Shown here piece by piece: positions 8,592 through 45,434 of a stretch of 64,000 nt of DNA; within the stretch, counting starts at the first letter, position 1; each line of letters opens with the position of its first letter. The stretch comes from Atribacterota bacterium (GTDB lineage: Bacteria > Atribacterota > Phoenicimicrobiia > Phoenicimicrobiales > Stramentimicrobiaceae): contig JAXGNR010000004.1 in the NCBI GenBank assembly GCA_040767965.1, forward strand, positions 785,335 to 849,334. Reading direction: 5' to 3'. The notes beneath the pieces were generated by a model. That model worked only from the letters and a program-made list of their open reading frames with translations. It was not told the origin of the DNA and searched no databases. The position numbers and the translations under genes are program-made.

Positions 8592-8945
8592 TGGTAGAGG
8601 CGGCGAGATTCGAACTCGCGTCCAGAGAACCATCAATAAAAAATACTACGAGTGTAGTCTATGTTCTATTGTTTCATATTACCTAACTCCCATAGACTGG
8701 ATTTAAATAATACTAGCTTCATAGTTTCTCTGAATCATTTGAAGCAAAATGAATCAGATAGCCTGTTTTTTGTTACACCCGCAATAAACTTACAAGCGAA
8801 AGTTCATTGCAGACGAGCAGCTATTAAGCTGCTAAAGCCAATTCGTTATCGTTGGCAATTAATGTTTTTCCCTAAGTTTAACGAGGATAAGGACCTCGAC
8901 TCGCATTCTTTACCCCTGTTTTCCCTGTCGAAACCTATCGCCCCC
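8592..8945 (-). ncRNA. ssrA: tmRNA (354 nt)
   Basis: 5' GGGGGCGATAGGTTTCGAC and 3' T-arm/acceptor GCGAGTTCGAATCTCGCCGCCTCTACCA with G3-U70 alanine determinant; internal tag ORF; directly follows smpB. Confidence 0.97.
8824..8856 (-). other. tmRNA proteolysis tag reading frame (A)ANDNELALAA*
   Basis: GCC AAC GAT AAC GAA TTG GCT TTA GCA GCT TAA followed by a second stop TAG. Confidence 0.93.
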
Positions 8946-10626: not shown

Positions 10627-10701
10627 TGGTGGCGCAAGGGGGAATTGAACCCCCGTTTGCTGATTGAGAGCCAGCTGAATTAACCACTATTCGATTGCGC
10701 C
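10627..10701 (-). tRNA. tRNA-Glu (anticodon CTC)
   Basis: GGCGCAA/TTGCGCC acceptor stem, GCTGG-CT-CTC-AA-TCAGC anticodon arm, GGGGG-TTCAATT-CCCCC T arm, encoded CCA. Confidence 0.95.
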
Positions 10702-10854: not shown

Positions 10855-10925
10855 CTGAGGGAGGTGGGGTCGAACCACCGCTCCCAGATCCAGAGTCTGG
10901 TGTCCTACCACTAGACGATCCCTCA
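10855..10925 (-). tRNA. tRNA-Gln (anticodon CTG)
   Basis: TGAGGGA/TCCCTCA acceptor stem (U1-A72), CCAGA-CT-CTG-GA-TCTGG anticodon arm, GGTGG-TTCGACC-CCACC T arm; CCA not fully encoded (CCT). Confidence 0.95.
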
Positions 10926-42639: not shown

Positions 42640-43197
42640 TTATGACGGTATTTCATCATTAATCATTATTTTTTGAATAAGAACAAACAAACCAACAATT
42701 ATAATTATATCACCAACACTTAATATAGAAGTATCAGGAAAAGGTTTAGGCAGTTGGAAAATATCCCCCAAAAAAGTAAACATGGTATTTTCGTTTTTTA
42801 TTAAATGAATAGCATTTTTACCATTATTAAATAAAGTTTCTATGTCTATCTGTTCAACAGTTTTCTCACTTAAAAGCACTGGCATTTTCCCGCCATTGAT
42901 AAGAATTACAAAAGAATTAAGTGATAATCCTAAAATTATATATTTAAATCCATCAATTTTTATATTCGTAAAAGAAGCATATAATAAAAATAAATATGAT
43001 AAAACAGAAAAATAGCCTATATAATTGACAATTGCAGATATGTTTAAACCCGCAATAACCCAAATAAGTATTCTTAAGCCTAAAGCAATAGCAAAAAGAT
43101 AAACACTTTTAATAGATATTTCAAACAAGCGCTCTAGGTCGCCACCTCTTAAAAGTGCTATTATAATAGCCAAAGTAATAATTATTAAATAAAACAT
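42640..43197 (-). CDS. DUF5317-like multi-pass membrane protein
   Basis: RGG.L..L, LN..VILINGGKMPV, FLGDIF and SVGDIII pattern, recognised from memory as DUF5317; about 5 TM helices. Confidence 0.75.
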   Translation of the reverse strand: MFYLIIITLAIIIALLRGGDLERLFEISIKSVYLFAIALGLRILIWVIAGLNISAIVNYIGYFSVLSYLFLLYASFTNIKIDGFKYIILGLSLNSFVILINGGKMPVLLSEKTVEQIDIETLFNNGKNAIHLIKNENTMFTFLGDIFQLPKPFPDTSILSVGDIIIIVGLFVLIQKIMINDEIPS

Positions 43198-43201
43198 GGC
43201 T

Positions 43202-44443
43202 TTAATTTTCCTCGTTTTTTTCCAACAATAATATAAATTCTGGAACTATCTTAGGATCAAATTGTGTACCAGAACCTTTTTTTAATTCTATTAATATTTC
43301 ACTTCTTTTTAGTTTTTTCCTGTAAGGTCGATCAGAGTTCATAGCATCATAGGAGTCTACTATTGCGAGAACCCGAGATAACCTTGGTATCTCTTCTCCT
43401 TTCAATCCTTCCGGATAACCTTTTCCATCGTAACGTTCATGATGATATAAGACTGTTTTTGAACATTTTTTTAAAAATTCTATTGACTCTATAATTCCAG
43501 CTCCAATTATAGGATGTTGTTTTATTTTTTCATATTCTTCATCATTTAACTTATCTTTTTTACCTAAGATTCTATCTTCTATTCCTATTTTACCAATATC
43601 ATGCAAAATAGCAGCATATTCTAAGTATTCTACCTCACTATCCATGTATCCTAATTTTCTTGCCAGCTGTACTGCCATTTTTGATACTCTATCAGAGTGA
43701 CCATGGGTGTAAGGGTCTTTTGCATCAATTGTTGCAGCAAGGGTTTTTATGGTATCCAAATACATTTTACGCATTTTGGTATATAATTCAAAAGAACGTC
43801 TTGCTAAAATCAATGGGAAAAAAAATAATAAAATTCCCAGCATACCAACTTGCACATAAACAATTGCCATAATGAAACCTAAAGGTGCTTCAGCTAAATA
43901 GCTGGGCAAAACTTCTTTTATGTTCACTTTATATACCTTGGTAATATTTATATTTGTATTAAGTGATATTCCAATGGTTACTAAAATTGAATTAATAATG
44001 CAATAAGTTAAAGCGCATAAAATAGCCGGGAAAACATAATTAAAATAATTAACTTTACCCAAAGCTCCACCCATATAGTTATAAACACTTCCTGCAACTC
44101 CTGAAGCAATTGAGAATTGAGCAGCATTAAATATAATTTTCCCCAGCTGCTTATCATCATCCTTTCCTAAAAGTATCCCTAAAACACTAAATGCGGATAC
44201 TATCATAGCCATTCCAGGCCCGTGAACTAATATAACAACAAAGTCAATAGGAAAAGTAATTGTTATTTGTCCTCCTGCAGGAAGTGAAACAGGAAATATT
44301 TCTGCGATTATGGAAATAAAAATAAAAAATATTAAAGTTAACCAGATTTCAGAAAAATGGGGAATTGTAGGAATAAAGGCATAAAATAAAATAACAGACA
44401 GTAAAGATATTGCAATAGTATATTTTTTTAATTTCCTATTCAA
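43202..44443 (-). CDS. HD-GYP cyclic-dinucleotide phosphodiesterase with N-terminal multi-TM sensor (MASE9-like)
   Basis: DAKDPYTHGHS.RV, LHDIGKIG, HHERYDGKGYP and DSYDAM.SDRPYR motifs; about 7 hydrophobic segments in the first ~215 aa; TTG start after AGGAG. Confidence 0.92.
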   Translation of the reverse strand: MNRKLKKYTIAISLLSVILFYAFIPTIPHFSEIWLTLIFFIFISIIAEIFPVSLPAGGQITITFPIDFVVILVHGPGMAMIVSAFSVLGILLGKDDDKQLGKIIFNAAQFSIASGVAGSVYNYMGGALGKVNYFNYVFPAILCALTYCIINSILVTIGISLNTNINITKVYKVNIKEVLPSYLAEAPLGFIMAIVYVQVGMLGILLFFFPLILARRSFELYTKMRKMYLDTIKTLAATIDAKDPYTHGHSDRVSKMAVQLARKLGYMDSEVEYLEYAAILHDIGKIGIEDRILGKKDKLNDEEYEKIKQHPIIGAGIIESIEFLKKCSKTVLYHHERYDGKGYPEGLKGEEIPRLSRVLAIVDSYDAMNSDRPYRKKLKRSEILIELKKGSGTQFDPKIVPEFILLLEKNEEN

Positions 44444-44507
44444 ACTTTACTCCTTGTACTTGCATCGATGCATCGATAAAAATAATCATGAATAATAATT
44501 AAAGAAA

Positions 44508-44730
44508 AAATAGGCCGGTGATTTTTATATTACAATCTGAATCTAGCGCCGCCGGCTAGTAGCAAAGCCATGACACTAATTAAAAAGCTGATTATCTTAG
44601 CTCTATTAATTTTCATATAGCACCTCCACGGTTTTTCTTTGTTCTAGTGAACAAGCAAAAACCGCTTCGCTTCGCTTCAAAAGTAAATTGCTACTTTTTT
44701 TATATTTTTATAATAATCACCGGCCTATTT
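44508..44730. repeat. 22-bp long-range inverted repeat (1 mismatch) enclosing the peptide gene and its leader
   Basis: AAATAGGCCGGTGATTTTTATA at 44508-44529 vs TATAATAATCACCGGCCTATTT at 44709-44730. Confidence 0.9.
44530..44616 (-). CDS. Unannotated 28-aa peptide MKINRAKIISFLISVMALLLAGGARFRL (putative signalling-peptide precursor)
   Basis: Strong SD GGAGGTG 5 nt before ATG; signal-peptide-like architecture (basic N region, hydrophobic core, AGGA, short RFRL tail); in line with the HD-GYP operon. Confidence 0.8.
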   Translation of the reverse strand: MKINRAKIISFLISVMALLLAGGARFRL

Positions 44731-44770
44731 ATTATACCTCCTAATTATGTTAGATTATTTTTAAAATATT

Positions 44771-45434
44771 TTACATGAATATTCTTCTGTTGATAGCTTT
44801 CAAAGTGGCATTAACAATAGATCTATTATATTCTTCTTCTATTAACGCAGCTCCTACTAAGCATTCTTTCCCATCTGGTTTAACAAGTTGGATACCAACT
44901 AAAAATAATTCTTTTTCATCTAACGTGGTTTTTTTGATTTCTTCAAGCTGAAAAAAGAATCTTCCATTCATAAATGAAGTTACAGCTTCCAGAGTAGCTT
45001 TTGCTATAACGTATTCTACATTATTTCCCCAATTAGAACATTCAATAATACCTTCACAAAATCTATTGCAATTCTCTAGTTTAACATTTACGGATAAATT
45101 ATCTTTATCAAAAATTACTTTAATATCAGATATTTTTAATCTGCTTGTATCACTTATTTCATCTTGAACCTGAGCAATGCTAATTTTGCGATAATCAATT
45201 AATATATTATATTTAGCTATTAAAATAGATTCTATATCTCTTGTTATTTTTTTTGGATTACAGTTCTCTTTGGTTATAATGTGAATTTCTTTAATTTCTT
45301 GCTTATCTGATAATATGATTTTTGAAAAATAAAATACCATTTAATTTATTTATTGATTTTTCAATTTCAATTATTTTTGAATTAAGTTTGGAAGATAGAT
45401 TGCTTCCATAATCTTCTACAGGAATATCACTCAT
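44771..45434 (-). CDS. Conserved hypothetical protein with a C-terminal region resembling the LeuA allosteric domain; apparent frameshift at ~45325
   Basis: EIHI..PKKITRDIES..IDYRKISIAQ and GAAL..SIVNATLKAINR. ATG at 45434 after AAGGGG joins the 44771..45340 frame after removing one base from an A-run. Confidence 0.7.

Follow-up and report, generated by a model that had tools for sequence, protein, structure and literature searches.

A 28-codon open reading frame (ORF) on the minus strand of a 64,000-nucleotide stretch of an Atribacterota bacterium contig (JAXGNR010000004.1; the whole stretch is referred to here as the window) is a genuine and very strongly conserved gene. It lies within a small-mRNA unit of about 229 nt, the two ends of which are complementary and predicted to pair in a long helix, hereafter the clamp. 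With moderate confidence we propose, from sequence comparison, that its product is a membrane micropeptide which acts with the proteins of the two genes downstream, a MASE9-HD-GYP phosphodiesterase of cyclic di-GMP (c-di-GMP) and a DUF5317 membrane protein, whether or not the peptide is cleaved. Standard gene callers discard genes of fewer than 30 codons. Few genes in its neighbourhood are as conserved as this one, and the phylum is known largely from metagenome-assembled genomes (MAGs).

Comparison of the window with 34 related loci of the JS1 lineage gave 32 complete copies (the window included), two copies cut by contig ends and one contig ending inside the unit. The ORF, which extends from an ATG at 44616-44614 to a TAA stop at 44532-44530, is open over 28-29 codons in all 32 complete copies and intact in 23 of 23 copies from outside JS1, making 55 complete copies in total. 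The initial annotation of this DNA had described an unannotated 28-residue peptide at this position; its place and length are confirmed, the ORF is now assigned to the minus strand, and it is not refuted by the condition set there, as no stop or frameshift interrupts it in any complete copy. Among the other five frames of the JS1 copies, four contain a stop in every copy and the fifth in 2 of 32. Variable columns of the JS1 alignment number 11, 7 and 22 of 28 at the first, second and third codon positions, respectively. The proportion of synonymous differences (pS) is 0.50, that of nonsynonymous differences (pN) 0.063, and the ratio of nonsynonymous to synonymous substitution rates (dN/dS) 0.08; over codons 1-24 this ratio falls to 0.03, and the four tail residues vary. 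Outside JS1 (21 of the 23 loci) pS is 0.66, near saturation, pN is 0.14 and dN/dS is 0.10. Ratios of 0.08-0.10 with saturated synonymous sites imply direct selection on the amino-acid sequence. Identity to the window copy within the order is 71-93% for the peptide, compared with 52-73% for the HD-GYP protein and 65-85% for the N-terminus of SecA. At the DNA level, the match of a 361-nt query to relatives is confined to some 170-230 nt around the ORF, and 20 of the 21 other genomes in the window's family have the unit at 75-88% identity, most genomes of a second family at 76-82%.

A profile search of 86 Atribacterota species genomes recovered the gene in 76 of them at E<=0.5 and in 73 at E<1e-4, covering all seven families. 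The profile was built to include weak matches from other families, found at the same site directly upstream of the HD-GYP gene. Matches at E<1e-4 comprise the window's own genome and, for groups f1 to f7 in turn, 20/21, 23/30, 9/11, 14/17, 1/1, 3/3 and 2/2 genomes. Five genomes with no match were examined: in two the HD-GYP orthologue is cut at the contig start and in three only paralogous HD domains are present, and the locus is therefore simply unassembled there. No second copy of the peptide was found in the window's own genome.

A search of 1.84 billion representative proteins returned 18 matches at E<=0.001, none of them named; the 16 small relatives among these share ...AL(V/L)LA(G/S)GA(N/G/K)(F/Y/M)xW. 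Ten exact peptide sequences were looked up in a collection of about 15 billion proteins, where two occur, neither of them named. The window peptide has no family in Pfam or NCBIfam at E<=10, its best match among PDB sequences has an E of 0.29, and Rfam 15 places no known RNA family, such as 6S RNA, SRP RNA or a riboswitch, at the unit, either in the window or in seven relatives. Both the peptide family and the RNA structure are unnamed in the libraries searched, and we found no account of them in the literature on MASE9, DUF5317, HD-GYP and small membrane proteins, Atribacterota small proteins or metatranscriptomes, where the one relevant paper was the MASE9 preprint cited below.

The near-perfect Shine-Dalgarno sequence (SD) of the initial annotation is present, its spacer measuring 4 nt and not 5 nt as given there, and the SD stretch CCGTGGAGGTGC is unchanged in 31 of 31 JS1 units. 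The G+C-rich codons noted earlier (GCC GGC GGC GCT) are confirmed as codons 21-24, in a genome with a G+C content of 32.8%. The JS1 consensus peptide is MKINKAKLISFLISVMALLLAGGAKFxW, from which the window peptide departs through the minority states R5, I8 and a final L. Leu28 is read as TTG in three exactly matching RNA contigs, as in the window, and the unusual ...RFRL end is therefore no assembly error; it is an outlier among tails of the form (K/R/N/G)-(F/Y/..)-x-W(-R). Across the phylum the peptide has 25-29 residues. Non-JS1 ORFs have 25-26 codons, for example MAKVLSVLLGLLAIILASGAGFSWR(P), MKKLLSILLGLLAIVLASGAGFHWR and MK(L/Y)VYK(V/I)LFAIIALILAGGANFTWR, and carry SG where JS1 has GG. The family-wide motif is L-A-(G/S)-G-A-x-aromatic-x-W, of which L-A-(G/S)-G-A is the most conserved block.

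By inspection the peptide has a signal-peptide layout, MKINKAK / LISFLISVMALLL / AGGA followed by K/R, which is kept in 42 aligned members and leaves 4-5 residues C-terminal of the putative signal-peptidase site; the succession of basic N-terminus, hydrophobic core and small residues described by the initial annotation holds family-wide. Signal peptidase sites follow the -3/-1 rule and lipoboxes the rule L-[AS]-[GA]-C. L-A-(G/S)-G-A appears to fit the first and, lying at the end of the hydrophobic core as in lipoprotein signal peptides, resembles a Cys-less form of the second. Unlike in lipoprotein signal peptides, no Cys stands at +1 in any of the 32 JS1 (window included), 23 non-JS1 and 16 library peptides. 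Three readings suit the conserved block and the x-Phi-x-W that follows it: a signal peptidase I site, a lipobox with Gly for Cys, or a helix-packing face of small residues ending in an interfacial Trp anchor. The predicted layout is that of a signal peptide or a signal anchor.

The ORF is enclosed by the clamp (Table 1). The window unit (44508-44729) folds with a minimum free energy of -73.3 kcal/mol, z -6.87 relative to shuffles. For 31 JS1 units, the structure predicted by RNAalifold consists of the clamp helix, the leader hairpin, a short helix with GGAGG in an internal loop and two helices inside the ORF, with 98.5% of cells paired versus 32-49% after sliding of the partners. Of the 12 clamp pairs, four have changed on both sides, and the pair 205/214, which joins two synonymous sites, appears as CG in 16 of the sequences and as UA in 14. 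In f1 the clamp reaches 16+4+6 bp and takes in the Trp codon together with the first stop-codon base; in the G+C-richer f3-f6 it has 14-21 bp and its sequence differs from genus to genus. The 19 aligned non-JS1 units show both-side changes in 15 of 16 clamp pairs, 5 of 7 hairpin pairs and 21 of 32 pairs overall, with 95.4% pairing versus 36-51% after sliding and a covariation score of 0.470 versus 0.235 in shuffles, a value reached by 0 of 500 shuffles; the arms of these units were located through complementarity, which favours a helix, and the covariation over differing arm sequences is the independent part. For this alignment L135 was left out, the coordinates of L124 were widened by hand, and L114, L115 and L119 were excluded as clamp-less or at a contig edge. 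The f7 and metagenome-clade copies keep the peptide with a short leader and have no clamp, and in one case (f7) a canonical terminator is present, which makes the peptide the element common to all and the clamp a widespread addition. In JS1 (31 units) the mean probability of being unpaired is predicted to be 0.78 for the SD, against 0.37 for the whole unit, and in the 19 non-JS1 units the thermodynamic prediction for the SD is 0.24. The TATAAT hexamer beside the 5' arm, for which relatives show TAnAAT-like hexamers at a matching distance, would be the -10 box of a promoter belonging to the unit itself. A miniature inverted-repeat transposable element or other repeat element was ruled out, as the clamp core GGCCGGTGAT occurs in the 2.33-Mb genome only at the two arms of the unit.

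Table 1. Features of the micropeptide locus (window coordinates)
Feature	Position	Strand	Remarks
Whole clamp-closed small-mRNA unit, ~229 nt	44505..44733	minus	fold and exact RNA contigs
Clamp helix, 5' arm	44709..44733	minus	25-nt inverted repeat, 92% complementary; covariation
Clamp helix, 3' arm	44505..44529	minus	begins right after the stop codon, ends in a U-run
5'-untranslated region (5'-UTR) hairpin	44629..44664	minus	two 16-nt arms, 4-nt loop; abuts the SD on its upstream side
Purine-rich repeat GAAGCGAAGCGAAGCGG	44662..44678	minus	family consensus GAGCG(A/G)AGCGG, nearly invariant
TATAAT hexamer, candidate -10 box	44731..44736	minus	just upstream of the 5' arm; no good -35, unlisted by the promoter scan
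Micropeptide coding sequence, stop included	44530..44616	minus	28 aa, MKINRAKIISFLISVMALLLAGGARFRL; conserved, under purifying selection
Shine-Dalgarno GGAGGTG	44621..44627	minus	4 nt (CTAT) ahead of the ATG
MASE9-HD-GYP membrane phosphodiesterase, next gene downstream	43202..44443	minus	413 aa; Pfam HD_5 1e-38, MASE9 3e-12
DUF5317 membrane protein, second gene downstream	42640..43197	minus	185 aa; Pfam 9.5e-36
189-aa upstream protein	44774-45340	minus	AlphaFold pLDDT 88.5; repeated beta-beta-beta-alpha units

RNA from the locus has been assembled in two studies. Two exact contigs, of 206 nt (44514-44719) and 194 nt (44517-44710), come from two metatranscriptomes of one study, and a third, of 160 nt (44522-44681), from a sediment metatranscriptome of another. 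All three fall within the clamp-to-clamp unit; the flanking genes have no cover in those three runs over the range 44300-45000, and RNA contigs of close relatives reach a depth near 500. The contigs, which carry neither strand nor true ends, are a weak hint of a discrete, abundant RNA.

The HD-GYP gene adjoins the peptide gene downstream in all 67 loci that reach that far (38/38 in JS1, 23/23 outside JS1 and 6/6 from metagenomes), and DUF5317 follows it in most loci, including five of the seven of the metagenome clade. The JS1 order, from 41 species-genome loci, is AhcY, ComF, HPF, the 189-aa protein, the peptide, MASE9-HD-GYP, DUF5317 and SecA. The gene for the 189-aa protein stands upstream in 37 of 37 JS1 loci reaching in that direction; the upstream pair is missing in the f7 locus L115, and the upstream genes differ in the metagenome clade (seven loci). 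Since the upstream neighbours change while those downstream stay, the constant link is the peptide, then MASE9-HD-GYP, then DUF5317. L085 was omitted from the HD-GYP alignment for a stop in its translation.

According to the reading that we favour, the micropeptide would be encoded by its own small mRNA of ~200-250 nt, with its ends paired in the clamp and a hairpin in the 5'-UTR. The clamp and the compact fold would keep this message stable and abundant and, because the f1 clamp takes in the last codons, the ribosome would have to open it to complete translation. The peptide would then insert into the cytoplasmic membrane with its N-terminus inside and its C-terminus outside, like a signal anchor, and would work there with the c-di-GMP phosphodiesterase and DUF5317. 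It would either set the phosphodiesterase activity, as a partner or ligand within the membrane, or act after trimming by DUF5317 between (G/S) and G of the lipobox-like L-A-(G/S)-G-A. It is the constant company of these two membrane proteins that favours a role with them. In a passage of their preprint, the authors who defined MASE9 suggest that ligand binding takes place within the membrane (bioRxiv 10.1101/2021.11.05.467447). Our literature search found no micropeptide partner for a MASE9 HD-GYP phosphodiesterase. The peptide would be a concrete candidate to account for the roles of the orphan MASE9 sensor domain and of DUF5317. A complex prediction with MASE9 residues 1-232, DUF5317 and the peptide scored 0.01; the 28-aa chain lies outside the calibration and the run had no controls, and it is counted neither way.

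In kind, the product is a bacterial small membrane protein and hence not categorically new. The regulators of the pairs MgrB-PhoQ, AcrZ-AcrB, KdpF-KdpABC and Prli42-stressosome consist of 25-50 residues, with a single hydrophobic helix between charged ends; gene callers miss them, and they act through helix-helix contact with a larger membrane protein that is sometimes encoded next door. The Atribacterota peptide is similarly short, with one hydrophobic helix and charged ends, but differs from them in its lack of sequence similarity to a named family, in the partner proposed (MASE9-HD-GYP), in its phylum-wide distribution and in its clamped mRNA, which also offers an example of a message with both ends clamped by a covarying helix.

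Several points weigh against this proposal. Gene neighbourhood alone is weak ground for a physical partnership. The hydrophobic span of the JS1 peptides is about 17 residues, a typical signal-peptide length and a low one for a stable transmembrane helix. Part of the apparent invariance of the peptide may be driven by the RNA, through the in-ORF helices at synonymous sites, and the unstranded contigs could stem from a terminated leader transcript or from an abundant RNA that is non-coding or antisense. Finally, a link between DUF5317 and the lipoprotein signal peptidase LspA, on which trimming by DUF5317 would lean, is weak: structural scores of about Z 5 are within noise, Foldseek is blank and the profile match covers 43 columns.

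That link deserves description all the same. DUF5317 has two invariant Asp residues, D145 (in FLGD) and D163 (in SVGD), in an alignment limited to ORFs of 175-205 aa. Aligned by hhalign with the LspA of the phylum, it gives a probability of 66% (E 5.6e-5, 43 columns), with SVGD of the last helix placed on FNIAD, compared with 0.8% and 0.2% for two membrane-protein controls. In structural comparison (VIA-align wide), the LspA chains 5dir_A and 6ryp_A match the DUF5317 model at Z 5.3 and 4.9 with a root-mean-square deviation of 3.2 A, within the noise of helical bundles, the best match being a designed helical barrel at Z 6.2; a Foldseek search of the same model (pLDDT 78) against the PDB gave no match (best E 3.4). 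No prepilin-peptidase or presenilin-type chain is among the 50 matches listed, and an assignment as a GxGD protease thus found no support. A normal LspA (Peptidase_A8, PF01252) is present elsewhere in the window's genome; DUF5317 is also matched in the control genomes of Thermotoga maritima and Thermus thermophilus. DUF5317 may be a divergent relative of LspA, an uncharacterised intramembrane aspartyl peptidase, but this weak similarity is a lead, below the level of proof.

An alternative that we consider unlikely, although it leads the others, is a secreted signal: signal peptidase I or DUF5317 would cut at or beside L-A-(G/S)-G-A, and the 4-7-residue x-Phi-x-W-R piece would serve as a cue outside the cell, possibly sensed by MASE9-HD-GYP. 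It draws on the family-wide layout of basic N-terminus, hydrophobic core and small residues at -1 and -3, on a Phi-x-W tail kept across the phylum and in metagenome relatives, and on the high RNA abundance, and the possible LspA-like nature of DUF5317 keeps a processed peptide in play. Some relatives also match Phr_nterm, PhrK and LPAM_1, but every such match is under its cut-off (two relatives at 13-14 bits for Phr_nterm and PhrK, with cut-offs of 25 and 35; 15.7 bits for LPAM_1, with a cut-off of 20) and the window peptide matches none at E<=10. Ordinary signal peptides conserve hydrophobicity rather than sequence, whereas here it is the JS1 'leader' that is nearly invariant and the 'cargo' that varies, contrary to the initial view of the peptide as a leader with a cargo of 4-5 residues; the RFRL that would be released in the window is itself atypical. 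In non-JS1 members, Phi-x-W completes a helix of ~21 residues and reads as an interfacial anchor. A pheromone would, moreover, be near-identical through whole families and so lack species specificity.

The same observations bear on the more specific proposals made at the outset. Active peptides of Phr/RRNPP and SHP precursors, and of enterococcal pheromones derived from lipoprotein signal peptides, lie at or near the C-terminal end. The Atribacterota peptide is like these precursors in its shortness, basic N-terminus and hydrophobic core; it differs in having no adjacent receptor gene, no Cys lipobox, at most 4-7 residues past the site, and a JS1 leader under tighter conservation than the cargo. 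Within ~3 kb of the peptide gene, neither the window nor the conserved neighbours in relatives showed an RRNPP receptor, an oligopeptide permease, or a C39 or ABC exporter; where Rap, NprR, PlcR, PrgX or Rgg were looked for in adjacent genes, HPF, a LeuA-like protein, MASE9-HD-GYP, DUF5317 and SecA stand instead. The invariant JS1 core, the single-copy vertical inheritance in conserved synteny across the phylum, and the lack of a receptor or exporter gene therefore disfavour a classical pheromone precursor with an address-tag leader. A double-glycine leader fares no better, given that only Ala and four residues follow GG, that non-JS1 members have SG, and that no C39 or ABC gene is among the conserved neighbours.

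Also unlikely, and ranked behind a secreted signal, is a micropeptide whose partner is encoded elsewhere, serving for instance as a regulator or minor subunit in a transporter or in a respiratory or secretion complex, its position being inherited gene order. Many known bacterial micropeptides do act on proteins encoded elsewhere. The phylum-wide, single-copy, housekeeping-like conservation, greater than that of the SecA N-terminus, would suit such a role, as would a promoter-like hexamer and an end of its own, with a canonical terminator in f7. Against it, the adjacency to HD-GYP and DUF5317 outlasts the change of upstream genes in f7 and the metagenome clade, which goes beyond gene-order inertia.

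Doubtful, and placed below both of these, is the most elaborate form of the partnership with DUF5317 and MASE9, a three-part module in which the peptide made from the clamp-stabilised mini-mRNA would be cut by an LspA-like DUF5317 between (G/S) and G of L-A-(G/S)-G-A, and the membrane-embedded or released fragment would be the MASE9 ligand that switches HD-GYP. If true, it would constitute a path from peptide to c-di-GMP signalling, universal in Atribacterota, with the first ligand for MASE9 and the first function for DUF5317.

That the RNA is the main actor, whether as a cis-regulatory leader or attenuator controlling the HD-GYP operon or as a small RNA acting in trans, with the ORF a regulatory upstream ORF or of secondary importance, seems improbable. 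The strong structure is backed by covariation, including synonymous sites that covary so as to preserve helices; the GAGCG(A/G)AGCGG motif of the 5'-UTR is near-invariant; the JS1 clamp and U-run lie just ahead of the HD-GYP start; and the RNA contigs end at the clamp, with none on HD-GYP. The low dN/dS at saturated synonymous sites nevertheless speaks for the peptide, f7 and metagenome relatives keep it without the clamp or long leader, and no Rfam family matches.

A type I toxin, in which a membrane-damaging peptide would be silenced by 5'-3' pairing of its mRNA and by an antisense RNA, is very improbable: the small hydrophobic product, the ORF enclosed by a long 5'-3' clamp, a promoter-like match on the opposite strand (ATGACA-17-TATCTT, 44570-44598) and the mostly paired SD predicted for non-JS1 units would suit it, but the gene is single-copy, strictly syntenic and vertically inherited across the phylum under strong purifying selection, the JS1 SD is predicted to be open, f7 combines a plain promoter with a strong SD and a terminator, and the antisense promoter match lies inside coding sequence and is not independently conserved. 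In hok/Sok and aapA1/IsoA1 a small hydrophobic ORF is enclosed by long 5'-3' pairing in a compact, stable mRNA. The Atribacterota unit shares this enclosure by long-distance pairing and differs in its single copy, its synteny and an SD predicted to be open in JS1, the toxins being patchy and multi-copy.

Some further observations concern the unit in MAGs. Many of the related MAGs (G010, G013, G027, G030, G032, G033 and G082 among them) have a contig end in or beside the unit, and one related genome has three short contigs, each with a copy of it. The 170-nt core is nearly identical in species that occur together and, like rRNA genes, probably causes assemblies to break at this point, a matter of practical interest. 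In L115 (G074:C26) a partial second, tandem micropeptide ORF (MKYVYKILFAI...) starts ~250 nt downstream of the first copy. L111 and L112 carry the typical Atribacterota locus though labelled 'Actinomycetota bacterium' and 'bacterium', and have probably been mis-binned or mislabelled. A possible operator site is GCATCGAT GCATCGAT at 44457-44484, a tandem or palindromic sequence in the interval that separates the unit from the TTG start codon of the HD-GYP gene.

The 189-aa upstream protein has no Pfam or NCBIfam family. Its model matches the regulatory domain of LeuA/citramalate synthase (Foldseek E 2e-5, TMq 0.45; 3f6h, TMt 0.63), and it is possibly a small-molecule-binding protein, kept beside HPF across the phylum. 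The LeuA-like fold offers no connection to the processing of peptides. In the window its gene (44771-45434, minus strand) seems to have lost its N-terminus through a frame change, whether genuine or due to faulty assembly: a 43-aa ORF at 45303-45434 carries ...EKSINKLNGILF, the in-frame N-terminal part of the 189-aa protein in relatives. A raiA RNA motif (RF03072, 46166-46389, minus strand; 168.7 bits against a gathering threshold of 101.3) precedes the hibernation factor gene, some 1.5 kb upstream of the micropeptide unit, and is also present in the relatives L034 and L011. Elsewhere in the window, the Rfam scan located a tmRNA at 8592-8945 (minus strand) and tRNA genes at 10630-10701 and 10855-10925 (minus strand).

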